Shown: positions 2,474 through 63,760 of the stretch, in pieces
Layout of the letters: every line of letters begins with the position of its first letter
Position numbering within the stretch: position 1 is the stretch's first letter
Assembly (NCBI GenBank): GCA_041660305.1
Contig: JBAZWO010000004.1
Location: 32,873 to 96,872 of the forward strand
Direction of reading: 5' to 3'
DNA: 64,000 nucleotides
Source of the DNA: Patescibacteria group bacterium
GTDB taxonomy: Bacteria; Patescibacteriota; Patescibacteriia; UBA9570
The notes under the pieces: generated by a model
What the model was told of the DNA's origin: nothing
Seen by the model: the letters and a program-made list of their open reading frames with translations, nothing else
Databases searched by the model: none
Made by a program: the position numbers and the translations under genes

Positions 2474-3673
2474 ATGTACAAATCCGATTTTCCATTATTA
2501 CAATATACTAATGTAGCCTGGCTAGATAATGCTGCCACTACGCAAAAACCGCAGGTAGTGCTAGATAAAATGACAGAATTTTATACGCACTACAATGCTA
2601 ATGTGCATCGTGGTTTGTACACATTAAGTGTTCAGGCAACAGCGCTGTATGAAAGTGCTCGCGGTACGGTGCAAGCATTTATTCATGCCGGAGCTCCAGA
2701 GGAAATTATTTTTACTAGCGGTACTACCGCTGGTATTAATTTACTAGCCACATCGTTAGGGGAATTATTAATAAAACCAGGCGATGAAATTTTATTAAGC
2801 CCAATGGAGCATCATAGCAATTTGGTGCCGTGGCAATTATTAGCGAAACGTAAGCAGGCTAAGTTAACGTTTTTTGATCTTACGTCTGATACAGAAATTG
2901 ATTTAAACACTTTGGCCGGAAAAATTACGGATCGAGTAAAAATAATTAGTTTGGCGCATATTTCGAATGCCGCCGGAACGGTGCATCCGATTAAACAAAT
3001 TATCGAATTGGCGCATAAAAACCATATACCAGTAATTATTGACGGAGCACAAAGCGTTGGGCACGTGCCAGTGAACGTGCAAGAACTGGATTGTGATTTT
3101 TTAGTGTGGTCTGGCCATAAAATGTGTGGGCCAACTGGTACTGGGGTGCTTTATGGTAAAAAGCGCTGGCTAGAACAAATGGAGCCCTGGCAAGGTGGCG
3201 GCGACATGATAAAAGAAGTTACTCTAGAACAAGCTACTTGGAATGAGTTGCCATATAAATTTGAAGCTGGCACGCCAAATATTGCCGGCGTAATTGGTTT
3301 AGCGGCCGCTATTGAGTATTTAGAAAAAATTGGTATAAAAAAGATAGAACGAGTTACTAGTGAACGGTATCACTATTTATTAACAAGCCTGCAACAATTA
3401 GATTTTATTAAATTGCACGGTGTGAATAAAATCAATCATGGCATTGTGTCGTTCACCATGGATATTGCACACCCGCATGATATTGCGCAGATATTAGATG
3501 AGCACAATGTAGCGGTGCGCGCCGGGCATCATTGTTGTCAGCCGCTCATGCATATCTGGCAAGTACCGGCTACTACACGCGCCAGTGTGTATTTTTATAA
3601 TGAACCAGAAGATATTGATAAATTAATTAATGGGTTAAAGAAAGTGTATGATACATTCAGACCCCACCCTTAA
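2474..3673 (+). CDS. sufS: Cysteine desulfurase SufS (class V aminotransferase)
   Basis: 399 aa with motifs HHSNLVPWQ, SGHKMCGPTGTGVLYG (PLP lysine region) and RAGHHCCQPL (catalytic Cys loop). Confidence 0.9.
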   Translation: MYKSDFPLLQYTNVAWLDNAATTQKPQVVLDKMTEFYTHYNANVHRGLYTLSVQATALYESARGTVQAFIHAGAPEEIIFTSGTTAGINLLATSLGELLIKPGDEILLSPMEHHSNLVPWQLLAKRKQAKLTFFDLTSDTEIDLNTLAGKITDRVKIISLAHISNAAGTVHPIKQIIELAHKNHIPVIIDGAQSVGHVPVNVQELDCDFLVWSGHKMCGPTGTGVLYGKKRWLEQMEPWQGGGDMIKEVTLEQATWNELPYKFEAGTPNIAGVIGLAAAIEYLEKIGIKKIERVTSERYHYLLTSLQQLDFIKLHGVNKINHGIVSFTMDIAHPHDIAQILDEHNVAVRAGHHCCQPLMHIWQVPATTRASVYFYNEPEDIDKLINGLKKVYDTFRPHP

Positions 3674-3748
3674 TCCCTCCCCTGCAAGGGAGGGAGATAA
3701 ATTAATTAATTTTTACCCCCTCTTGCAGGAGGGGGCAGGGGGAGGTCT
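3662..3748. repeat. Family-A hairpins (sufS/sufU gap)
   Basis: TCCCTCCCCTGCAAGGGAGGGA (3674-3695) and CCCCCTCTTGCAGGAGGGGG (3716-3735). Confidence 0.75.
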
Positions 3749-3753
3749 GAATT

Positions 3754-4119: not shown

Positions 4120-4199
4120 TTTTGACTAGCCTGATTATTTATGTTAATTTGAGTAACGTTTTAATCGTTCTTTATAATACAGGGTTGTTGGGAATTGAG

Positions 4200-4500
4200 T
4201 GTATATTTTTTATTTGTAGAGACGCCCCGCCGGGGCGTCTCTACAAAAACAATGTGCGTTGAATCCCCAACAACCCACTCGCCCCCGGTCTAAAATGGTT
4301 TAGACCGGGGGCTAGAAAGGAGAACCCCATGACAACATTATTGGTCGTGGGAGGCCTGGCAGGCAGTTTTTTTGTCTGCTTGGTCTGGGGCTCATTAGCG
4401 CGGTTCAGTGAACCACGCGAATGAGCCCCGCGCCCTCTCCCGCGGAACGGGAGGGGTGATTCGGCCGAGCCACGGCGGTTTCGGAGAGGTGCTTGCAGGC
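4200..4500. repeat. Cluster of long GC-rich hairpins (possible structured RNA)
   Basis: There are four hairpins: GTAGAGACGCCCC-gcc-GGGGCGTCTCTAC (4216-4244), CCCCCGGTCTAAA-atgg-TTTAGACCGGGGG (4282-4311), GGGGCTCATT…AATGAGCCCC (4387-4429) and CCCTCTCCCG-cggaa-CGGGAGGGG (4433-4456). Confidence 0.7.
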
Positions 4501-4558
4501 TCGGGCAACATCTCATTTTTTTTTATTTTTTCAAAAAAACTTTATAAAATATCATGAT

Positions 4559-7450
4559 ATGGTATATAATATAACCATGTTTATTTATTACAAAAAATAT
4601 CTATTATTATGTAGTGTTATTAGTATAATATTGTTTGGTAATGTAACTTTAGTTTCAGCCAGCAATATAGCTATAGCGGGTTCCGGCTGTTTTGCGCGGG
4701 TGAGCGATGATGTGAATAACGTGTATACGGTGCGGATGCAAACACCGAGTTGTGCTGTTACGGTTAATAATACAGCCAGCACTAACCAAACGGTAAATAT
4801 TACTATCGAAAACATTGATCCGGATTTTGTGACGGTAGATAAGTATGATGTTATACCAGGGTTAACTAAAACTACTAACACGTTACAGTTTTTATACACA
4901 GTAGCGGCTGGTAGCACTACTATTAATATTACACCTTGGCAAACAATTACCAATGATTTTTATTTTGTAGCGTTATCGGACAATCAACCCAGCGGTACAA
5001 TAGAAGTTAACCCGGCGTTTACGCAAATGTTACAGCAAGTTAGCACGGTTAATCCGGTATTTTTTACTAATTCCGGTGATTTGGTTTCTGGCAGTGAAGA
5101 TACGGCTACACTGCAAGCTATGTTTACCGCATTGCACAGTGAGTTAGCTAGTTATGCCACAGCGCCCATCTACACTGTACCGGGAAATCACGATTATGGA
5201 ACCGATTTAAGCATTTACAAAACTTATTTTGGCGGTACTATCGATTATACGTTTGATTTTGCCAATACTAAATTTGTTAATTTTTCTACGGCCTCACCGG
5301 TAGCTAAGGGAGATGTAACGAGCGAGCAGTTAACTTGGCTAAATACTACCCTAGCCGGTAATACTAAAACCAATCTAATCGCGTTGTTTCATCATCCGGT
5401 ATCTACTCCTAGCTGGGGCAGTAGTACGTGTTGTTACACTAATACTACTACACGCAATGAATTAGCGGGCGTGCTTGATAATAACCAAATTGATTACGCG
5501 ATTAACGGCCATACCCATGGTTATGATTACCGGTGGTTAACTAGTACGGACGTGTCTACCATTAATAATGGTTTTTATCAGCTAATTACCGCTGGTGCCG
5601 GCGGTTCTTTAACACAGCCAGACGGGCAATATCATTTTATGTTAATGCATGTATTAAATGATGCTATTACGCCAACATTTATTGCCTTAAATGATTTTGC
5701 CACCACAGTTAATTACACAGATAATACCGGTACAACGGCTATAGCCACAGCGCAAGTAAAAAATACGGCAGCCACAGCTTTGCCTTATGTGCGCTTAAAA
5801 TTTAAAGTTAGTAACCAGTACACTAATTATCAAGTGTACGATAATGCTAGTTGGCAATATCGTACGCCAAGTTGTAAAGCGTTTACGGATTATACCGTTT
5901 GTTATTTAGACACTACTGCTCCGGCGCAATCTGATTTTACTTATACCATTACCGCATCAGTACAGTTATATCGTGCGGCAGTTAATACCGTGCAAGCCGA
6001 TGGCACGGTAACGGTTAATCCTACGCCGGCTTCAGCCGAGAATGTAGTTACCGGCTTAACAGTGTTGCCGGCTACACAGAGCACGCAGGTTAGCGATATT
6101 GTGTGGGGTGGTGCCGCCGAACACTATCAGCGTACCTGGTTAGAAACGCCCAGGGTAGCTAATTTAGCTACTACATATACTATTAGCGAATTACCGGCAC
6201 AGCAAACTTTTGCCGTAACAGTGAATAATAAATTAATCGATAAAATTACTACAGACACAGCTGGTGTGTTAACGTTCACTTACAACGAAGAAAATGCCAG
6301 CCGGCAATTTAAATTAATTTGGTTAGATGATGCCGTGTATCCGGAAAAAGTCTTTTTAACGCCCGATAGTGGTGGTCAGCCGCAAGTGCGTGTATTTGAT
6401 GGCGCTGGTAAAAATTTAACCAATTGGTACGCGTTAACGTCATCTACCAGTGGATCCTATCGTACCGTCTTAGGAGATGTAACCGGCGACGATATTGACG
6501 AGGTAATTGTGTATACAGGCAAAGGCATCATGGCGCAAGTAGGGGCGTATACCCAAGACGGAGCTAAATTAGCTAGTGTAATTCCTTATGGAGAATCGTT
6601 TACGAAAGGATTACAAGTGCAGGTAGCGGATATTACTGGTGACGGTGTAGCTGAATTAATTATGTCGCCACAATCTGGCAAAGGTGAATTAAAAGTATTT
6701 GGTTATGATGCCACTACAGCTACGTTAATAAAGCTAAGTGGCTATACATTTTATTCAACTGCTTTTAAAAAACCGGTACGCTGGTTAACGGGTAATTGGA
6801 ACAATGATAATGTAGCGGAATTAGTAGTGGTAGGTAGTAATAAAAAAGGCACTAAAGTAAGGCTGTATCGTTATGATACAGCTACTCAACAGTGGGCATT
6901 AGTTAATAAAAAAATTCTCACGGATTTTTATACCAATTTAGCAATAGCTAAAGGTGATGTGTTGGGCGTTGGCAGTACGCAGTTATTAATTTACGGTTTA
7001 AATCAAACATTAGCAGAACCACAAGAGCAGTTAATTGTATTTAAAAATAGAGGCGGGAAATTAAAACTGGTTAATCGATATTCATTAACTACAAAATTAA
7101 CCGGTCAAGTGCGTATGGCTAGTGGCAATGTGTTTAATGAATTAAATGACAGTGTGTTATTCTGGTCAAAGCAAAATAATTATTTAGTGGGTTTTTCGTT
7201 ACAAGAGCAAAAACTAAAAAAACGCTTCAAAAAATATCCTTATAGCCAAGACGCTACTAATAGTTTTAATTTTAATTTGTTAGATACGAATCATGATGGA
7301 CAAGTGGAGTTAGTAATAGCGCCTATGGCCAGTGCCGCGCCTAAAGTTAAGATATTAAATTATGATACCAGTGCAAACCAGTGGTTAAAAACCAGTTGGT
7401 TAGGGTATCCTAGTAATTTTTTGGGTGGGGTGTATATTGGTAATAAGTAG
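4559..7450 (+). CDS. Secreted calcineurin-like metallophosphoesterase fused to FG-GAP/VCBS-type propeller repeats
   Basis: The ORF is open from 4493, but the first ATG outside the GC-rich repeat cluster is 4559 (4577 is also possible). It has an N-terminal hydrophobic signal/anchor. Metallophosphoesterase motifs are GDLVSGSED, VPGNHDY, FHHP and NGHTHGY. C-terminal repeats are GDVTGDDIDEVIV, ADITGDGVAELIM and LDTNHDGQVELVI. Confidence 0.7.
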   Translation: MVYNITMFIYYKKYLLLCSVISIILFGNVTLVSASNIAIAGSGCFARVSDDVNNVYTVRMQTPSCAVTVNNTASTNQTVNITIENIDPDFVTVDKYDVIPGLTKTTNTLQFLYTVAAGSTTINITPWQTITNDFYFVALSDNQPSGTIEVNPAFTQMLQQVSTVNPVFFTNSGDLVSGSEDTATLQAMFTALHSELASYATAPIYTVPGNHDYGTDLSIYKTYFGGTIDYTFDFANTKFVNFSTASPVAKGDVTSEQLTWLNTTLAGNTKTNLIALFHHPVSTPSWGSSTCCYTNTTTRNELAGVLDNNQIDYAINGHTHGYDYRWLTSTDVSTINNGFYQLITAGAGGSLTQPDGQYHFMLMHVLNDAITPTFIALNDFATTVNYTDNTGTTAIATAQVKNTAATALPYVRLKFKVSNQYTNYQVYDNASWQYRTPSCKAFTDYTVCYLDTTAPAQSDFTYTITASVQLYRAAVNTVQADGTVTVNPTPASAENVVTGLTVLPATQSTQVSDIVWGGAAEHYQRTWLETPRVANLATTYTISELPAQQTFAVTVNNKLIDKITTDTAGVLTFTYNEENASRQFKLIWLDDAVYPEKVFLTPDSGGQPQVRVFDGAGKNLTNWYALTSSTSGSYRTVLGDVTGDDIDEVIVYTGKGIMAQVGAYTQDGAKLASVIPYGESFTKGLQVQVADITGDGVAELIMSPQSGKGELKVFGYDATTATLIKLSGYTFYSTAFKKPVRWLTGNWNNDNVAELVVVGSNKKGTKVRLYRYDTATQQWALVNKKILTDFYTNLAIAKGDVLGVGSTQLLIYGLNQTLAEPQEQLIVFKNRGGKLKLVNRYSLTTKLTGQVRMASGNVFNELNDSVLFWSKQNNYLVGFSLQEQKLKKRFKKYPYSQDATNSFNFNLLDTNHDGQVELVIAPMASAAPKVKILNYDTSANQWLKTSWLGYPSNFLGGVYIGNK

Positions 7451-9522: not shown

Positions 9523-9603
9523 TCTCCCTTTCCCCTGTTTAGGGGAAAGGGTTGGGGATAGAGGTAGGATGTTTAAAGGAGAGGGGGGGTTAGGGGGTGA
9601 GGT
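9523..9603. repeat. Family-A repeat (proC/proA gap, includes the proC stop)
   Basis: CTCCCTTTCCCCTGTTTAGGGGAAAGGGTTGGGGATAGAGGTAGG is nearly identical to 11868-11912. Confidence 0.85.
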
Positions 9604-11477: not shown

Positions 11478-11533
11478 AACACTAAAAGCATACGGGCTAT
11501 ATGTGTTGCTGTCAACGAAACAGGTGTGTTACC

Positions 11534-12838
11534 ATGAAGTTCATGTTATTTGCTCACGCGCCACTTGGTTTTTTAACGGTTCGTGCTACCAGACGATGGT
11601 GGAGTAAATTTAATTTATCCAAACGGCAACAACGTGGTTTGTATATCGCTGGAGGGCTCGGCGGCATTTTTCCAGATATTGATTTGTTTTATTTTTATTT
11701 AGTAAATGCCAGCGTTAATCATCGCCAGCTGTGGACGCATGGTATTTTGCCGTATCTGCTGGTGTTGTTAATTGGATTTATATTAGTATCCCTCTCCTCC
11801 AAACGTCCTACCTCACCCCCTAGCCCCCTCTCCTCTAAGGAGAGGGGGGATAATCAAATTGCATTGCTCCCTTTCCCCTGGTTAGGGGAAAGGGTTGGGG
11901 ATAGAGGTAGGTATTTAGGCTTATGTTTATTAATGTTCGTTATAGGAGTATACACTCATTTATTCGCCGATTGTATTACCGGCCGCATAGTATTATTGTA
12001 TCCGTTTTCCAATTTGTTATATGGGTTTAATTCTTGGAGCTGGTATGAACATAGTATTTTAGCTAGCTATTCATTAACTACTAATTACACAGTAGAATTA
12101 CTAGTATTTATTATATTAGGTTATTTATTTGTAAAAAGAAGCACTACAAAAATTATTTATATTATTGTTTCGATTATATTATTCGTAAGTGTAACGAGTG
12201 GATTAATTTGGCTAGATAAGCACACTTATAAAACTAATGGTATATTTGTGTATAGCGATATAGATAATGACGGAATATTAAATGTGCAGGATTTAGATAT
12301 AGACGGTGATGGTATAAATAATAGTAATGATAACAATGCTGATAATAACAATATTAATAATCGTGAACAATTAAATAACGAATTACCTAAAATATTAGGC
12401 TCGTTATATGATTATTCTAACGGCGGGTTTATTCAAATACCACTACGCTTAGGTCTGGTAAACGATTTAGTATTAATTGAGCGCGCTTATACAAATATTG
12501 GTATGTCTTTTTCATCTGAAATGGGCGAAGATTTTAAAAATAATCCCAGTGGTTATATTTCTAATCCAAAGGATTACCGATTTACTGATAATCCGCAAAA
12601 CTGGCAGACTTGGTTACAGCATCAACAGAAATTATTGCCCGCTACCATTTTAACTCAAGCGCAACCATTTGATATTATCTTTTTTCAATCTGGTCATGTA
12701 GCTTTATATTATCCATGGAATAACCAGCCAGCGGTAATTGAAATAAACAAAAAGCAACCATTTACTAGTGTAGTATCATTAAATGAAGTAATAAAACAAG
12801 AAGGTCAGGTAAGTGCATTTGGCAAAATTTTACCTTAA
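11534..12838 (+). CDS. Membrane protein: YdjM-like membrane-bound metal-dependent hydrolase N-domain, Asp/Asn-rich Ca-binding-like repeats and an uncharacterised C-domain
   Basis: The likely start is ATG 11534 (MKFMLFAHAPLGF). It has multiple TM helices and a THLFADCITG motif. DIDNDGILNVQDLDIDGDGINNSNDNN resembles thrombospondin type-3-like repeats. The CDS carries an in-frame GC-rich repeat at about 11790-11912. Confidence 0.55.
   Translation: MKFMLFAHAPLGFLTVRATRRWWSKFNLSKRQQRGLYIAGGLGGIFPDIDLFYFYLVNASVNHRQLWTHGILPYLLVLLIGFILVSLSSKRPTSPPSPLSSKERGDNQIALLPFPWLGERVGDRGRYLGLCLLMFVIGVYTHLFADCITGRIVLLYPFSNLLYGFNSWSWYEHSILASYSLTTNYTVELLVFIILGYLFVKRSTTKIIYIIVSIILFVSVTSGLIWLDKHTYKTNGIFVYSDIDNDGILNVQDLDIDGDGINNSNDNNADNNNINNREQLNNELPKILGSLYDYSNGGFIQIPLRLGLVNDLVLIERAYTNIGMSFSSEMGEDFKNNPSGYISNPKDYRFTDNPQNWQTWLQHQQKLLPATILTQAQPFDIIFFQSGHVALYYPWNNQPAVIEINKKQPFTSVVSLNEVIKQEGQVSAFGKILP
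11790..11912. repeat. MITE-like family-A composite element, in frame inside a CDS
   Basis: Inverted termini CGTCCTACCTCAC … GAGGTAGG bracket two hairpins, CCCCCTCTCCTCTAAGGAGAGGGGGG and CTCCCTTTCCCCTGGTTAGGGGAAAGGG. Confidence 0.75.
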
Positions 12839-12897: not shown

Positions 12898-15800
12898 ATG
12901 ATAACAAATGTGTTTCTGCGGTGGTGTAACAAATTACAGGCTGTTATTGTTAGTTTGCAAGAAAAAATAGCCAGTAAGAGCTTTATTATAAAGTTAATAG
13001 TAGCGCCTGTTTTATTAGTGTTTTATATAGTATTGGCGCTTTGTTATGTGATATCGTTGTTATTTTCCTCACCACAAGCTACGTTCGAACATTTTACTAC
13101 GTTGCATCCTCGTAAAGGGTATACTACTTCATATACCGCTCATCGACGCTGGCAACGCTCTATTCAGGTAGCTACAGTAGCTTCCACTTTTGTGGTAATT
13201 GTTATTACTGTTGTTAATGGCTTGTTAGCTACGCCGCGTTCAGCTTTGGCTGACACACAAAGTATTGAATGTACTGGCACATCAGGTTCACCTTTACCAA
13301 TTAACCCTACTACAGGCGCAGATGTTACTTTAACCGGCAGCGGTTTTTGTCAGTTGATGACAGCAGCTAGTTTAAACAGCTTAACTATTCAAAATGGCGT
13401 TACGTTAACTCACGCGGCTGGAAGTACAACTGGTTTAGATATTACTATAGCGACTGATCTTAACATTGCCAGCGGTGGAGCGATTAGTGCCAATGCCAAA
13501 GGTTGTCAAGGTGGGGCTGTTAATGCTAATGGTTATGGTCCCAATCCTAGCACCGGTATCTGTGCAATTACTACTTCTGGCTATGGTGGAGGTCATACGG
13601 GAGGTAGCGGTGCTGGTCATGGTGGTGTTGGTGGGCGAGGTAATATGGATACAGCTGGAACTACTTATGATTCTAGCACGACACCGGCTTTACTGGGATC
13701 TGGCGGCGGCGGCGGCGGTGTTAGCGTTACCGGTGGCTATGGTGGCGGAAAAGTAATTTTAACAGTAAGCGGAACCCTCACAGTTAACGGCAATATCTCT
13801 GCCAACGGACAAGACGGTCCGACTATAACCACTTATGGCGGCGGCGGCGGAAGTGGTGGATCTGTTTATATTTCTACAAATGCTATTACCGGCAGTGCTG
13901 CTATTTCAGCCAATGGTGGCAATGGTGGAGTAGGATCAAGTATGGCGGGCGGTGGCGCTGGCGGCGGGCGAGTGACTGTTAATTATAATAATGCTTCTGG
14001 ATTTACTTTAGGCAATATCACCTCTACCAAAGGTTTGGCAGGAACAGGGGCAGGGGTAAGATCAGATGGTACTAATGGGACTACTTTTATTCTAGATCAA
14101 ATTACTGATAGTTTACGGATTATTTCAGGATTAAATTTTCAATCCGATAGTGATTATACACGAGCAAATATTACAGTGGATAATGGGGCTATTTTATCCT
14201 GTGATACTTTTGCAACTTTAAACTTTGGTGCAACGGCTACGCTAACCATGAACGGAGCAACTTGGACTTGTAGCACTATCGACACTATAAATATTTCTGC
14301 GGCTACTTGGACAACGAGCGGCACAAACACGTTAACGTTCAATAAAGCTGGAGCCCAAGTAGATTGGAACATTACCAATAATCTAACACTCAATAACCTA
14401 ACCTATACCGGTGGCACAGCTGGAACGTCCAGTGCCAATGGCGGTGTATTGAGTATGGACAATGCTGTTGCCGTAGCACTAGTAAATACCGACATTAATT
14501 CTAATATAAATTGGGCTAATTTAGCTAGCCTTAACATAGACGCTGATTCTTCAATTAGTTCTAATGCCAAGGGTTGTCAAGGTGGGGCTAGTACTCTTAA
14601 TGGTTATGGTCCAGATCCTAGTACAGGTATTTGTGCGATTAATATTTCCGGTTACGGCGGAGCGCATTCTTCGGGTAGCGGTGCTGGTCATGGCGGCGCT
14701 GGTGGGCGAGGTAATGCTGATACTGGTGGAACTACCTATGATTCCAATACTATTCCGGCTTTACTTGGATCTGGCGGCGGCGGCGGCGCTGGTCCTGCCG
14801 GTGGCTATGGTGGAGGAAAAATAAGCTTAACAGTAAGCGGAGCCCTCACGGTTAACGGTAATATTTCTGCTAACGGACAAGCCGGTCCAACAGCCAGCAA
14901 TTATGGTGGCGGTGGTGGAAGCGGTGGATCGGTTTATATTTCTATAAGTTCTATTCTCGGTAGCGCTGCTATCTCGGCAAATGGTGGCAATGGCGGCGAG
15001 GGATCTTCTAGTGCGGGTGGTGGCGGTGGTGGCGGTCGAGTGGCTGTTTATTATAACGATGCCGGCGGTTTTACTTTAGACAATATCACTTCTATCAAAG
15101 GTTTGGCAGGAACAGGAGTAGGGCCTAGACTAGATGGATCTAACGGAACAACTTATACTTTTCAATACACGGTTGCCGATACTCCTTCTGTAACAGCGCC
15201 GGTTAATATGTCTAGTGATAGTCGTACCCCAACTTTAACCGGATCCAGTTATTCTTCAAACGGAGCAGTTCACACCACAACAGATTGGAAAATAACTTCA
15301 GATCCGGAAGGTTCTACCATAGTATGGAGCAAAGACGACGATGCTGTTAATTTAGAAACCACTGTAGTGAATGCAACTAATGGCACCTTTAGTGGAGCGC
15401 TAGCCGGCGCAACCACTTTAGTAGGCAATACTATTTATCATGTTTTTGTACGCTATGCCAATGCCGCGGGTGATTCAGCTTGGTCTAGCGGTAATAACTT
15501 TATTACCAACAATACCCAGCCGGTTTGGGGTGGACCAATAATTGATCCGGGACAGGTGCCTGAAGACGGTACTCTGTTTTGGACGTTTGATTTAGATGAT
15601 TATTGCTCTGATGCTGACGGTGACGCTTTAACTTATTCTGCTGACAATGGTTTTTCTTTAGGTGTCATGACTATTAACCCAGTTACTCATGTAGTTACTT
15701 TTGCTTTAAATGCCAATGCCAACGGCAGTGATACTATTCGTTTTTCCGCTACCGATGGTTTATCTAGTGCAGTGTTGTCTAATGCCCCAACTATTACTGT

Positions 15801-18249
15801 TAACGCTGTGAACGATGCCCCGGTATTTACCAAAGGTAGTAACGATTTTGTTATGGAAGATGACGCTAGTCGCCAAGTAAATGGCTGGGCAACTGGAATT
15901 GGCACCGGTGGTGGTAGTGATGAATCTGGCCAAGTTTTAACATTTACTGTTGCCAATGATAATAACAGTCTATTTTCAGTACAACCAGATGTTAATGAAA
16001 GTTCTGGAAATTTAACGTACACACTTGCTAGTAACGCTTTTGGTAGCGCTACTGTTACAGTCGGTTTGTCTGATAATGGTGGTACAGCTAACGGTGGCGA
16101 CGACACCAGTGATAGTCAGACGTTTACTTTAGAGGCAACTTCCATTAACGATGAGCCGTCATTTACAGCAGGCGAGAGTCAAACAGTGTATGAAGACACT
16201 GGTTTATACACTGTCGCTACTTGGGTAGTGGCTATGAGCACCGGTCCTAGTAACGAATCCGGGCAAACCGTGTCATTTAACGTGACTAATGAGGGTAATA
16301 GTTTATTTTCTGTTCAGCCGGCCATAGATGCAAGCGGTGCTTTAACCTTCACTCCCGCAGATAACATAAATGGTTCTACTACTGTTCACGTTACCATGCA
16401 AGATAGCGGCGGCACAGATGCCGGCGGTGATGACACCAGTGCTGAACAAACATTTACCATTGGAATCAACCCGGCAAACGATGCTCCGAGTTTTACTAAA
16501 GGCGCCAATCAAAGTGTCGCCGAAGATGCCGGCGCACAGACGGTGGCTGGTTGGGCAACCGGTATGAGCAAAGGACCGGCTGATGAATCCGGTCAAACTT
16601 TAACATTTAATATTAGCAACGATAATAACAGCTTATTTTCTGTTCAGCCGGATATTGATGAAAGTACCGGTAATTTAACATATACTCCGGCCACCAATAT
16701 CAACGGTTCAGCCACAATTACTGTTTATCTGTCAGATAATGGCGGCATTGAGGGGGATTACACCAGCGATGAGCAAACATTTACCATTACGGTTAATGCC
16801 GCAAATGATACTCCCACGGCCAATGCCGGTAGCGATGTAACGGCCACGGAAGACGACGCTAGCGTTGCATTAAACGGCTCCACTTCGTCTGATTTGGATG
16901 GCGATACTTTAACTTATGCTTGGGTGGAAATCATCGATAGCGGTGATGGCTGCAGTATCAGTAATATCACTAGTAGCCAGCCGACAGTATCTATCTTTAA
17001 TGAAGATTCTAATTTTTCATGTGAATATCGCTTAACGGTTAACGACGGCGCGGCTTCGGCCACTGATACAGTTACTGTTAATATATCAGCCGATAATGAC
17101 GCGCCGGCTTTCTCCACGGTTTCTAATCAAACTGTTACAGAAAACAATACTTTATCTTTCACGGTAAATGCCAGCGATATTGATACTTCTTTGTTAGATT
17201 TATCAGCCGCTGATAACAACGGAGATTTTACAGACAAAGCTATAAATGTTAATACTCTTTTTACTGATAATAACAACAACACCGGCACGTTCTCTTGGCA
17301 GCCAACCGCTGGAAAGAGTGGCACATATCGTGTACTGTTTAACGCTACCGACGGCGCCAGTACCGCCGCGCAACAAGTGGATATTACCGTAGTAGCTGGT
17401 ACTTCCACCAATACCAACACTAATACCAATACCAATACGAACACAGAGCCGACTTTTACTGGGGCTCTAGATAATATCACTTTATTCGCTGGCACCACAG
17501 CTAGTAATATAATGGATTTGGATAATTATTTTAGCGATGCCGAAGATACTCAATTAACCTATAGCATTAAAGAAAACGTAGTTATTACAGTTACCATAGT
17601 TGATGGCCAGGTATCAATTACCGCTCCGGCTAATAGCGCCGGTACGTATGCCATTACCTTTATGGCACAAGACAGCCAACAAGCCGAAGCGGACAGCAAT
17701 GCTATTATAGTTAGCATTATGGAACCACCGGCTTTGGCAGATATTAATGTAATGACTGGATCAGCTACTGGCAAAGGGGTAATTACATTGTTTGATAAGG
17801 ATGGTAAAGAGTTAAGTAGCTGGGAAGCATTTTCAGAAGGTGGGGTAATTCCTAAAGTAACCACTATCAATAACACGCCGTATGTTTTAGCGATTAAACA
17901 AAAAGTTGGTTCCACTATTCATATTTATACTACAGCCGGTAGCCTAGTAAGAAAACAACGTTTATCCAAACAACTCTATTGGCGCAAATTGGCTATAGGT
18001 AATGTAGATAATCATACTAACAATAAAGAAATTGTAGTGGCTACTCTGCGTAATCAAGGAGTTACTATTAAAGTTTATCGATTCAATGTAAAACGCAATG
18101 CCTTCCGTTTAATCAAACGAGGTTATTATCGCGATGCCTTAACACCAGCGAATCATAACTATCAAGTTAGCATCAAGCAACGTACTATTATATTAAAACA
18201 TGAAGACGGTAGTGTGTTCTTCAGGTGGAAAATAAATTCTACAAACTAA
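12898..18249 (+). CDS. Giant (1783 aa) membrane-anchored surface protein with Gly-rich beta-helix-like modules, Ig/cadherin-like tandem domains and a propeller-like C-terminus
   Basis: This is a single long ORF with an N-terminal TM segment. It has two ~200-aa Gly-rich modules, three ~110-aa tandem domains beginning ND(A/E)P(S/V)FT, and a PKD-like segment. It also has a (TN)n linker and a C-terminal region resembling the C-terminus of the 4559-7450 protein. Confidence 0.8.
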   Translation: MITNVFLRWCNKLQAVIVSLQEKIASKSFIIKLIVAPVLLVFYIVLALCYVISLLFSSPQATFEHFTTLHPRKGYTTSYTAHRRWQRSIQVATVASTFVVIVITVVNGLLATPRSALADTQSIECTGTSGSPLPINPTTGADVTLTGSGFCQLMTAASLNSLTIQNGVTLTHAAGSTTGLDITIATDLNIASGGAISANAKGCQGGAVNANGYGPNPSTGICAITTSGYGGGHTGGSGAGHGGVGGRGNMDTAGTTYDSSTTPALLGSGGGGGGVSVTGGYGGGKVILTVSGTLTVNGNISANGQDGPTITTYGGGGGSGGSVYISTNAITGSAAISANGGNGGVGSSMAGGGAGGGRVTVNYNNASGFTLGNITSTKGLAGTGAGVRSDGTNGTTFILDQITDSLRIISGLNFQSDSDYTRANITVDNGAILSCDTFATLNFGATATLTMNGATWTCSTIDTINISAATWTTSGTNTLTFNKAGAQVDWNITNNLTLNNLTYTGGTAGTSSANGGVLSMDNAVAVALVNTDINSNINWANLASLNIDADSSISSNAKGCQGGASTLNGYGPDPSTGICAINISGYGGAHSSGSGAGHGGAGGRGNADTGGTTYDSNTIPALLGSGGGGGAGPAGGYGGGKISLTVSGALTVNGNISANGQAGPTASNYGGGGGSGGSVYISISSILGSAAISANGGNGGEGSSSAGGGGGGGRVAVYYNDAGGFTLDNITSIKGLAGTGVGPRLDGSNGTTYTFQYTVADTPSVTAPVNMSSDSRTPTLTGSSYSSNGAVHTTTDWKITSDPEGSTIVWSKDDDAVNLETTVVNATNGTFSGALAGATTLVGNTIYHVFVRYANAAGDSAWSSGNNFITNNTQPVWGGPIIDPGQVPEDGTLFWTFDLDDYCSDADGDALTYSADNGFSLGVMTINPVTHVVTFALNANANGSDTIRFSATDGLSSAVLSNAPTITVNAVNDAPVFTKGSNDFVMEDDASRQVNGWATGIGTGGGSDESGQVLTFTVANDNNSLFSVQPDVNESSGNLTYTLASNAFGSATVTVGLSDNGGTANGGDDTSDSQTFTLEATSINDEPSFTAGESQTVYEDTGLYTVATWVVAMSTGPSNESGQTVSFNVTNEGNSLFSVQPAIDASGALTFTPADNINGSTTVHVTMQDSGGTDAGGDDTSAEQTFTIGINPANDAPSFTKGANQSVAEDAGAQTVAGWATGMSKGPADESGQTLTFNISNDNNSLFSVQPDIDESTGNLTYTPATNINGSATITVYLSDNGGIEGDYTSDEQTFTITVNAANDTPTANAGSDVTATEDDASVALNGSTSSDLDGDTLTYAWVEIIDSGDGCSISNITSSQPTVSIFNEDSNFSCEYRLTVNDGAASATDTVTVNISADNDAPAFSTVSNQTVTENNTLSFTVNASDIDTSLLDLSAADNNGDFTDKAINVNTLFTDNNNNTGTFSWQPTAGKSGTYRVLFNATDGASTAAQQVDITVVAGTSTNTNTNTNTNTNTEPTFTGALDNITLFAGTTASNIMDLDNYFSDAEDTQLTYSIKENVVITVTIVDGQVSITAPANSAGTYAITFMAQDSQQAEADSNAIIVSIMEPPALADINVMTGSATGKGVITLFDKDGKELSSWEAFSEGGVIPKVTTINNTPYVLAIKQKVGSTIHIYTTAGSLVRKQRLSKQLYWRKLAIGNVDNHTNNKEIVVATLRNQGVTIKVYRFNVKRNAFRLIKRGYYRDALTPANHNYQVSIKQRTIILKHEDGSVFFRWKINSTN
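13489..14087 (+). repeat. Gly-rich module copy 1 (intragenic duplication)
   Basis: SANAKGCQGGA…GYGP(N/D)PSTGICAI…GSGAGHGG…GGRGN…LLGSGGGGG…NGNISANGQ…GGGGGSGGSVYIS…ISANGGNGG is repeated at 14560-15157. Long stretches are identical at the nucleotide level. Confidence 0.85.
14560..15157 (+). repeat. Gly-rich module copy 2 (intragenic duplication)
   Basis: Paralogous to 13489-14087 (same order of motifs, similar length). Confidence 0.85.
15811..16803 (+). repeat. Three tandem ~330-nt coding repeats (Ig/cadherin-like domains)
   Basis: Units start at 15811, 16147 and 16477. Each reads ND(A/E)P(V/S)FT…DESGQ(V/T)(L/V)(T/S)F(T/N)(V/I)…NSLFSVQP…G(N/A)LT(Y/F)T…NG(S)(A/T)T(V/I)…SD(N/S)GG…. Confidence 0.85.
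17407..17445 (+). repeat. Imperfect hexanucleotide (ACC-AAT)n microsatellite encoding (TN)6T
   Basis: accaataccaacactaataccaataccaatacgaacaca lies inside the giant ORF. Confidence 0.8.
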
Positions 18250-18875: not shown

Positions 18876-19030
18876 TTCTCCCCCTTCCACTAAACACCTA
18901 CCTCACTCCCCCTACCCCCTCTCTCCTCTAAGGAGAGAGGGGGAAATAAGAAATGATAATTAGAGAAATTACTCCTCCTCTCCTTAGAGGAGAGGAGGTT
19001 GGGAGGTGAGGTAGGACGTTGGGGGTAGAA
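18876..19030. repeat. MITE-like family-A composite element, intergenic copy
   Basis: CACCTACCTCAC…CCCCCTCTCTCCTCTAAGGAGAGAGGGGG…CTCCTCCTCTCCTTAGAGGAGAGGAGG…GTGAGGTAGGACG has the same architecture as 11790-11912. Confidence 0.8.
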
Positions 19031-46694: not shown

Positions 46695-46698
46695 CTTT

Positions 46699-46770
46699 AC
46701 TAACCCACCAGGCTAAACCTGGGGGTTAGTATGATTAACCCCTGGGTTTATCCCAGTGGGTTAATCAGGG
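46699..46770. repeat. Family-B GC-rich hairpin repeats, two copies in inverted orientation
   Basis: The two copies are TAACCCACCAGGCTAAACCTGGGGGTTA (46701-46728) and TTAACCCCTGGGTTTATCCCAGTGGGTTAA (46735-46764). Each is a hairpin, and together they form a larger palindrome. Confidence 0.8.
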
Positions 46771-47086: not shown

Positions 47087-47116
47087 TAACCCCCCGGGTT
47101 TATCCTGGTGGGTTTA
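47087..47116. repeat. Family-B hairpin repeat
   Basis: TTAACCCCCCGGGTTTATCCTGGTGGGTTT has the same consensus as 46735-46764. Confidence 0.75.
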
Positions 47117-47187
47117 TAAAAAACTATGCAACTCAACAAAACATTCTATATCGATTTGTTTGGTTATAGAAATAATAAAAAATCAAT

Positions 47188-63448: not shown

Positions 63449-63670
63449 ATTAATCAATCCAAAATAAAAAAGGGCTTGGTAACTAAAAAGAAACCTTGCC
63501 ATTATCTTCTCTCCGGTGTTCCGGTTAGGGTATCCAACCCGGGTGCGAGATACGCCCATCCCATAACGCAGGGACATCGCGACATGCCGCCAGGGGGCTA
63601 CCTCCCCTTTGTACGACGGCGGTATTCGTCGTACAATCCCTCAGCGATAAAGCCGGGAGTTAACATAACT

Positions 63671-63696
63671 AACACCCAGGTTTATCCCGGTGTGGT
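63671..63696. repeat. Family-B hairpin repeat
   Basis: AACACCCAGGTTTATCCCGGTGTGGT has the same CC(N)GG-TTTAT-CC(N)GG architecture as the copies at 46.7 and 47.1 kb. Confidence 0.65.
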
Positions 63697-63760
63697 AGTA
63701 AAGGATCGCTAAGAAAAATGAATTTCTCATGAATTTTACCTAAGTTAACCCTAAAGGGGC

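Follow-up and report, generated by a model that had tools for sequence, protein, structure and literature searches.

An open reading frame (ORF) at 11534-12838 on the forward strand of a 64,000-nucleotide stretch of DNA from a Patescibacteria group bacterium (the window; assembly GCA_041660305.1, contig JBAZWO010000004.1, positions 32,873 to 96,872) encodes a membrane metal-dependent hydrolase of the YdjM family (PF04307), 434 amino acids in length, and contains a palindromic repeat, element A. A copy of this repeat entered the loop-coding DNA between two membrane helices of the hydrolase, and the gene is otherwise intact. Element A is quite probably a copy of a non-coding, GC-rich palindromic repeat that is dispersed and consists of an inverted pair of intrastrand triplex motif modules, and it lies in frame in the YdjM-family gene. 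The single event is ordinary: tolerated insertions of palindromes in frame have been on record since 2000. The covariation of the modules across phyla and the recurrence of in-frame copies are the parts most worth follow-up.

Element A in the YdjM-family gene

The core of element A spans 11804-11911 on the forward strand and is 108 nt in length, or 36 codons (R91-R126), with CGTCCTACCTCAC at 11804-11816 and GAGGTAGG at 11904-11911 as its ends. With the extended inverted ends (CCAAACGT...TATTTAGG) the full extent of the element is 11799-11919. The terminal inverted repeats (CCTACCTC...GAGGTAGG) are 8-14 nt long, or up to about 16 nt if mismatches are allowed, and the element is 108-121 nt in length. 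Two perfect 11-bp hairpins were found inside, at 11824-11848 (CCCCCTCTCCT/CTA/AGGAGAGGGGG) and at 11869-11894 (CCCTTTCCCCT/GGTT/AGGGGAAAGGG). An initial annotation, made from the sequence alone, had described a palindromic element of about 120 nt with inverted termini and two GC hairpins inside the ORF, and the element is indeed of this kind; its limits had been set at 11790-11912, and the inverted ends actually reach about 11799-11919. Just before the element, at 11790-11798, is a possible element-derived fragment resembling a pyrimidine arm (CCCTCTCCT). Folding of element A was compared with 200 shuffled sequences, none of which was as stable: the z-scores were -3.7 (forward strand) and -5.5 (reverse strand) for RNA, and -5.7 and -5.9 for DNA, all from folding tools that model Watson-Crick pairs only. 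The G+C content of the host gene was 33% outside the core and 56% within it, a jump of 23 points.

The ORF was uninterrupted across element A, where it encodes ...SSKRPTSPPSPLSSKERGDNQIALLPFPWLGERVGDRGRY..., and only one of the six frames of the element was open, which is the frame of the host gene. Reading the ORF through the element thus upheld the initial description of an insertion that leaves the frame unbroken upstream of the conserved THLFADCITG motif. Removal of the 108 nt would join ...TCCTCCAAA to TATTTAGG.... Translation of the insert would yield the tryptic peptides GDNQIALLPFPWLGER and RPTSPPSPLSSK. The longest ORF starts at 11501, and the orthologues point to 11543 as the likely true start.

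The host protein matched PF04307 (YdjM; Pfam E = 1.2e-13), and the same domain was found in all 38 of its 38 homologues. Seven residues that are invariant across the family (H8, D48, D50, H63, H69, H142, and D146) were all retained, on both sides of the insert. THLFADCITG is located downstream of the insert, and H142 and D146 were invariant in 19 of 19 aligned sequences. In a model of the protein made by AlphaFold2 from the alignment (mean predicted local distance difference test score, pLDDT, 87; predicted template modelling score, pTM, 0.80), residues 91-120 had a pLDDT of 52-62 and formed a coil between helices 71-89 and 121-149, in agreement with the position between two helices proposed initially. 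The insert is therefore modelled as a low-confidence loop, predicted to be disordered, between two confident helices.

An alignment of orthologues, which had been suggested with the initial annotation as a check, delimited the insertion: 18 of 18 aligned orthologues (32-57% identity) had a gap opposite RPTSPPSPLSSKERGDNQIALLPFPWLGERVGDRG. From the helix end (GFILV) to the conserved W/Y-L/I-G there were 8 residues in the three closest relatives (L026-L028) versus 41 in the window, and the codon-level comparison with these three orthologues gave a net gain of 33 amino acids. The loop of about 40 amino acids that had been proposed was therefore somewhat too long; the proposed tolerance fits a gene that is otherwise intact and keeps the invariant residues.

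The host protein was 100% identical to the NCBI entry 'metal-dependent hydrolase [Patescibacteria group bacterium]', and the same protein, insertion included, was recorded in two NCBI metagenome-assembled genomes (MAGs), in IMG/GEM, and in an ENA MEGAHIT assembly. The ENA contig (L031) was 100% identical to the window over 9.1 kb, and there were zero mismatches over 18.2 kb between the window and JBAYKG010000014.1 (GCA_041664685.1). The identical insert in the NCBI, IMG/GEM, and ENA records makes an assembly artefact very unlikely.

Triplex motif modules in the window, in relatives, and in other phyla

Read on the G-rich strand, a module consists of a polypyrimidine arm, a loop of 3-6 nt, a complementary polypurine arm, a linker of 2-3 nt, and a final G-rich segment, which mirrors the purine arm except that one or two A are changed to T. 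The left module of element A (11807-11848, reverse strand) reads CCCCCTCTCCT / TAG / AGGAGAGGGGG / CTA / GGGGGTGAGGT / AGG and has 11 of 11 valid triads. It is separated by an AT-rich spacer (11849-11868) from the right module (11869-11911, forward strand), which reads CCCTTTCCCCT / GGTT / AGGGGAAAGGG / TTG / GGGATAGAGGT / AGG and has 10 of 11. The two modules face each other with the mirror segments outside, so that these segments look like terminal inverted repeats. The seven complete modules in the window had between 7 of 7 and 13 of 13 valid triads, apart from the one at 10 of 11, with loops of 3-6 nt and linkers of 2-3 nt. The ITxF class II definition (Holder 2015) specifies a pyrimidine arm followed by its purine complement and by a third block that mirrors the purine arm, with stems of 6-15 nt that have no more than one mismatch and loops of 1-6 nt. 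Judged by sequence, the modules of the window have the layout of a G/C-rich class II intrastrand triplex motif.

Thirty-nine modules, from the window and 20 other loci, followed the mirror rule, none of them with more than one bad triad. Different stems had different third segments to match: AGGAGAGGAGG was found with GGAGGTGAGGT, AGGAGAGAGGGGG with GGGGGAGTGAGGT, AGGGGAAAGGG with GGGATAGAGGT, and AGGGAGGGGG with GGGGGTGGGT. Eleven of the 12 distinct stems fitted their own tail with no more than one error, while 34% of swapped pairs did so. When Rfam 15 was searched at gathering thresholds, the window gave only two tRNAs, and four related loci gave no match.

The window contains at least four copies of the element; A, B, C, and D all lie within its first 19 kb. 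Element B (18890-19025) is an inverted dimer with modules at 18897-18943 (reverse strand) and 18974-19015 (forward strand). It is intergenic between DUF212 (reverse strand) and manC (forward strand), and its end is 13 nt upstream of the manC start codon (ATG, 19038). Its stems are unlike those of element A, its modules have 13 of 13 and 11 of 11 valid triads, and the right module reads CCTCCTCTCCT / TAG / AGGAGAGGAGG / TTG / GGAGGTGAGGT / AGG. The left arm of element A (11793-11854) and the far arm of element B (18968-19029) were 84% complementary over 62 nt. This intergenic copy had been recognised initially, at 18876-19030, as having the same architecture, which it does; elements C and D are two more. 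In a permissive Rfam search of 18883-19029, matches to plant and animal microRNA precursor models scored 40 bits or less against thresholds of 55-150 and were rejected as generic long-hairpin matches.

Element C (9526-9603, forward strand) contains a complete module at 9526-9568, the linker ATGTTTAAA, and a partial module at 9578-9603 that lacks the pyrimidine arm. Half of element A (11867-11911) was 98% identical over 45 nt to 9524-9568, which is 2.3 kb away. Element C is located between proC and proA, in a spacer of 80 nt; the ProC proteins of relatives end in ...AKEL* and that of the window in ...AKDLTP*, and the proC stop codon TAA (9590-9592, reverse strand) is the TTA linker of the C module. 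Element D (3658-3749) is an inverted dimer with modules at 3658-3695 (reverse strand) and 3716-3749 (forward strand) and the tails CAGACC...GGTCTG. Both its stems and its ends differ from those of the other copies, its modules have 8 of 8 and 7 of 7 valid triads, and its DNA folding z-score was -3.3. The stop codon TAA (3671-3673) of the ORF at 2474-3673 is the linker of the left D module. Element D ends 4 nt upstream of the next ATG (3754). The 10-mer CCTACCTCAC by itself was not significant in the window (4 matches versus 1.4 expected); the long alignments were significant.

In the window, the proB-proC-proA operon adjoins the YdjM-family gene on the opposite strand. The related contig L028 has the same gene order as the window (proA-proC-proB / ydjM / DUF212 / manC) and has empty sites for elements A, B, and C: proC and proA overlap by ATGA, and the DUF212-manC spacer, the empty B site, is 13 nt. 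Three other related contigs (L024, L025, and L027) carry the same repeat families at other sites. In L027, ydjM has no insert and a triplex-motif dimer directly follows its stop codon (3150-3246), and L024 and L025 (metagenome Ga0172379, 37% G+C) contain several copies, including one that overlaps a gene at its 3' end. Copies B and C and L024 share the junction motifs GGTAGG-T(N)(N)TTTAGG of element A, and the right module of element A is the same as a module in L025 at 12419. The boundaries of the copies were ragged, as seen in the fragment at 11790-11798 before element A, the partial module in element C, and tandem half-units in L024 joined by T-N-N-TTTAGG. That the sites differ among relatives, and that a half-copy at a distance of 2.3 kb is 98% identical, suggests that the element has spread in this lineage. 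The site differences and the empty sites in a syntenic relative would fit recent or ongoing spread, and are consistent with the initial suggestion that the element is active or recently active in the lineage.

Several other features of these contigs were observed. At 10180-10300 of L024, a series of half-modules comes after a 5S rRNA-like sequence. These half-modules consist of the complement of the mirror segment and the pyrimidine arm and have no purine arm; they are linked by TAAACTT-type linkers and resemble the mosaics of bacterial interspersed mosaic elements (BIMEs). Downstream of the host gene in the window, 12898-18249 encodes a 1783-amino-acid protein with internal repeats about 1.07 kb apart and about 80% identical (13459-14004 versus 14530-15072) and with a (Thr-Asn)n run; the gene for this protein is missing between ydjM and DUF212 in L028. 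A second, unrelated family of palindromic repeats (for example, TTAACCCCTGGGTTTATCCCAGTGGGTTAA) was found at 46695-46765, 47088-47120, and 63665-63703 of the window, where it flanks a small zinc-ribbon gene, and also in L025 (539-600 and 7386-7428). At 4182-4312, the two arms of a long inverted repeat (4182-4220 and 4238-4276) enclose GAGACGCCCCGCCGGGGCGTCTC, and next to this repeat, upstream of the ORF at 4493-7450, comes another strong hairpin, CCCCCGGTCTAAAATGGTTTAGACCGGGGG; two other assemblies begin contigs downstream of the long repeat, at window positions 4550 (L031) and 4593 (L001).

Copies in other phyla were sought with the pattern CCTACCTCAC-N8-22-CTCTCCTNNNAGGAGAG, which has 24 fixed bases, in one genome per species (596 Gb); about 0.05 chance matches were expected, as estimated from the collection size. 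Nineteen loci were found, in Cyanobacteria, Armatimonadota, Chloroflexota, Ignavibacteria/Chlorobi, Thiotrichales, and Cytophagales, so that the module is present in at least six phyla other than that of the host. The unconstrained positions of the 19 loci also fitted the module layout, and many of the loci were inverted dimers. A scan of viral contigs with both inverted ends gave three matches, all of them chance matches in GC-rich coding DNA.

Two further cases of in-frame copies were found. In an Ignavibacteriaceae MAG (L011, CAZHCW010000005.1, 2400-2620), an S9-family peptidase contains an in-frame triplex-motif dimer between YP... and LPCIIWNRGG. Its close homologues (63-87% identical in the local BLASTP match; 329-389 amino acids) either retain TSPLTPLLKGEG...PSPFRRGAGGEVG on the two sides of a spacer that varies in length or have other repeats at this site, and in homologues of about 280 amino acids the site is empty. 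Comparison of these sequences marks the site as an insertion hot spot. A word-indexed protein search with the 41-amino-acid insert retrieved nothing, the source protein included. An exhaustive phmmer search with the 42-amino-acid insert gave six matches, of which five were unrelated tandem-repeat proteins and one was relevant. In this protein, P0044 (a fragment of 221 amino acids), hairpin modules are translated as five in-frame units in tandem, TSPPTPLLSKERGDE / TSPPTPLPTWEKDDE, within an AMP-binding (adenylation) domain. The in-frame copies in the peptidase and in P0044 indicate that in-frame survival is not peculiar to this genome.

Formation and spread of the copies

A single DNA strand of a module would fold into a hairpin, and the mirror segment would bind the purine arm through reverse-Hoogsteen pairs, as expected from established triplex chemistry and from experiments on the BoxC/TM_ECO motifs of Escherichia coli (Holder et al. 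2015). Element A would have persisted because it landed in the only stop-free combination of orientation and frame among six. Its C-rich and G-rich arms would encode a stretch rich in Pro/Ser/Leu and Gly/Glu/Arg, predicted to be disordered and presumably tolerated, with the catalytic residues and the helices left intact. The copies may have spread by a structure-dependent process that acts on single-stranded DNA, of the type proposed for repetitive extragenic palindromic (REP) sequences and BIMEs, whether by a tyrosine transposase that is not linked to them or by copying in the course of replication or repair. A process of this type is the most likely, and classical cut-and-paste transposition is less likely.

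Several results weigh against the reading of element A as an inserted pair of triplex motif modules. The case for a triplex comes from sequence rules and from the covariation of G-rich segments, and in the covariation test the swapped controls already scored 0.84, a high background that is due to everything being G-rich. The strict TM_ECO consensus, CCCTCNCCC-N3-6-GGGNGAGGG-N3-GGGNGAGGG, had no matches on either strand of the window. The agreeing assemblies may come from overlapping read sets. The closest orthologues are only 48-52% identical, and no near-identical empty allele was found; when one was sought in the 90% protein cluster, all three of its three members carried the insertion. The right-hand 8 nt of element A (TATTTAGG) belong to the repeat by comparison with the other copies, yet the Y-L-G that they encode is aligned with the W/Y-L/I-G conserved among the orthologues. 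This double identity means either that there was no clean insertion or that microhomology or replacement was involved, and it suggests that the boundaries of element A reflect microhomology or replacement over simple insertion. Target-site duplications, another check proposed at the outset, were sought at the flanks of elements A, B, C, and D, and none was found; the AT-palindromic target that results when the core of element A alone is removed (AAATATTT) was not reproduced at B, C, or D. No mobilising enzyme was identified either: there were no transposase families, Y1_Tnp included, among the genes scanned at about 4.6-22.8 and 29.5-54.8 kb, a scan that left out the window ORFs at about 1-4.6, 22.8-29.5, and 54.8-64 kb and the rest of the genome.

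Among the individual routes, the one ranked first, though tentatively, requires no dedicated enzyme. The copies would result from replication or repair errors at stable non-B DNA, by template switching, microhomology-mediated copying, or gene conversion. The TM_ECO loci, which are much more rearranged than controls and have no link to transposons (Holder et al., PMC4666352), are consistent with this route, as are the messy boundaries with possible microhomology at TATTTAGG/Y-L-G, the partial modules, the loss of native codons where proC ends (AKEL* replaced by AKDLTP*), and the hot spot of variable-length insertion in the Ignavibacteriaceae peptidase. This support is indirect, however, and both the neat inverted dimers and the near-identity of a 40-nt module across phyla are hard to explain by this route.

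Somewhat more doubtful is movement, in single-stranded form, of a REPIN-type doublet (a REP doublet forming a hairpin) by a REP-associated tyrosine transposase (RAYT) whose gene would lie in another part of the genome. The inverted pair of palindromes with an outer GTAG-containing tail (GAGGTAGG) is the 'HH dimer' layout that predominates in GTAG REPs, intragenic REP dimers encoding 20-30 amino acids are documented (PMC3733652), and the missing duplication would fit transposition by a Y1 enzyme. However, the GTAG is 13-15 nt from the stem in element A, past the linker and the mirror segment, while it abuts the stem in REPs, and there is no GTAG in copy D. In addition, no Y1_Tnp gene was present in the parts scanned, and a REP family is usually tied to a single species and the RAYT of that species, unlike the present module, which is nearly the same across phyla.

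The initial annotation had labelled the element a MITE (a miniature inverted-repeat transposable element), that is, a deletion derivative of an insertion sequence that is moved in trans by a DDE transposase and makes target-site duplications. A size of about 120 nt (MITEs being under about 300 bp), 8-14 nt of inverted sequence at the ends, dispersal in several copies, and insertions that differ from relative to relative would all be expected of a MITE, but such an origin is unlikely. No direct repeat flanks any of elements A-D, no transposase family was found in the parts scanned, and the inverted ends are mirror segments that co-vary with the internal stems, not a fixed transposase site. The ends of element D are quite different (CAGACC), and the partial half-modules and the tandem half-units on fixed linkers are BIME-like. 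Since the ends are the third-strand segments of two inverted BoxC/TM-type modules, element A is better filed with the REP/BoxC-type palindromic repeats, and the initial annotation was right in substance and loose in its label.

A native lineage-specific protein loop, or an assembly artefact, with no inserted repeat is very improbable, for although loop length differs slightly among orthologues and the closest is only 52% identical, near-identical DNA occurs at non-homologous sites, the G+C content jumps by 23 points at the core, the insert is missing from 18 of 18 orthologues, and the sequence is identical in four assemblies or sources. Two other kinds of element were also rejected: an attC site (RYYYAAC...GTTRRRY), which the ends do not fit and for which there is no integron context, and an intein or intron, for which the element is too small and has no catalytic motifs. 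Element A thus continues to be best described as a copy of a dispersed repeat made of two inverted triplex motif modules.

Comparison with known systems

In the literature covered, which was incomplete, no paper was found that deals with elements of this kind in Patescibacteria or with triplex motifs located in coding sequence. The present data join two unconnected literatures, one on in-frame selfish DNA (Rickettsia palindromic elements, RPEs, and intragenic REPs) and one on the unexplained BoxC/triplex motifs of E. coli and cyanobacteria, and extend both to the small, compact genomes of Patescibacteria. In the window, the repeats part genes that normally overlap, provide stop codons, and give a membrane enzyme an additional loop. 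Stem, partner, and mirror segment co-vary three ways across phyla, which supports, at the level of sequence, a constraint on the triplex-capable layout and makes the function and movement of BoxC-type motifs more testable. A broader reading, which is speculative, is that triplex-motif dimers are one pan-bacterial family of structure-selected selfish DNA that would spread through a hairpin-triplex single-strand intermediate without a linked transposase and would be a recurrent source of disordered loops across phyla. Its basis is a near-identical AGGAGAGGGG-NNN-GGGGTGAGGT module found from Patescibacteria to Cyanobacteria, Ignavibacteria, Chloroflexota, and E. coli BoxC. If true, it would cover the loops in YdjM, in the Ignavibacteriaceae S9 peptidase, and in the five-unit adenylation domain.

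The bacterial MITEs (for example, Correia/NEMIS, RUP, ERIC, and the cyanobacterial MITEs of Anabaena) resemble element A in size, inverted ends, long RNA hairpin, and occasional in-frame fusions. Unlike in MITEs, the ends of element A co-vary with the internal stems, no copy has a target-site duplication, and no parent insertion sequence was found in the scanned parts of the window.

REPs are short GC-rich palindromes that occur mostly as inverted 'HH' dimers 20-100 bp apart and form mosaics with fixed linkers (PMC3733652). Their ends often give stop codons to neighbouring genes, and intragenic dimers encode 20-30 amino acids (Di Nocera et al. 2013, PMC3733652). Elements C and D likewise provide stop codons to neighbouring genes. 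GTAG REPs are defined as imperfect palindromes of 20-40 bp with the tetranucleotide GTAG (or CGTC) directly at the stem end (PMC3733652). Element A has no stem-adjacent tag, its GTAG (in GAGGTAGG) being 13-15 nt off, and it differs from REPs, BIMEs, and REPINs in that the mirror third segment lies between stem and tag and in that there was no RAYT in the scanned parts of the window.

RPEs (Ogata et al. 2000) are described, in PMC10969869 and PMC3733652, as palindromic repeats of about 100-150 nt that are found in frame in unrelated housekeeping genes and encode a peptide tolerated by the protein fold. The initial comparison with RPEs was apt for a tolerated in-frame insertion: element A, too, is inserted in frame in an otherwise intact gene, at a loop position. 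The behaviour is shared, but it does not make element A an RPE. RPEs form a family in Rickettsia in which the encoded peptide is conserved, whereas the conserved feature of element A is the DNA triplex/mirror rule, and its module crosses phyla. Given the host phylum and the module sequence, it is unlikely that element A belongs to an RPE family by sequence.

The closest parallel in layout came from a literature search for GGGGTGAGG, which led to Holder et al. 2015. The TM_ECO motif, earlier known as BoxC and 'PIT' elements, folds in vitro into a purine-motif intrastrand triplex (PMC4666352). It is dispersed in 262 proteobacterial genomes, has been reported only in Proteobacteria, is always intergenic in E. 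coli K-12, has no link to transposons, and is tied to local rearrangement ('genomic instability'; PMC4666352). Purine-motif triplexes do not form in RNA (PMC4666352), so any triplex here would be a DNA structure. Like element A, TM_ECO has a C-rich arm, a loop, a G-rich arm, a linker of 2-3 nt (TTA, CCG, and similar), and a G-rich mirror segment, with a GAGAG...GTGAG core that has one A-to-T change. It is also dispersed, with some copies in inverted pairs (5 of 18 E. coli loci). According to our reading of the table in PMC4666352, the mirror segments are inside in four of the five E. coli pairs and outside, as in element A, in one (numbers 17 and 18). In contrast to TM_ECO, the stems here are asymmetric and of 7-13 nt (for example, CCCCCTCTCCT), there is a TAGG tail with fixed linkers (T-N-N-TTTAGG), the host is a member of the Patescibacteria, and one copy is in frame within a gene. 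Because the strict TM_ECO consensus is unmatched, element A is filed under the general G/C-rich intrastrand triplex motifs and not under TM_ECO itself.

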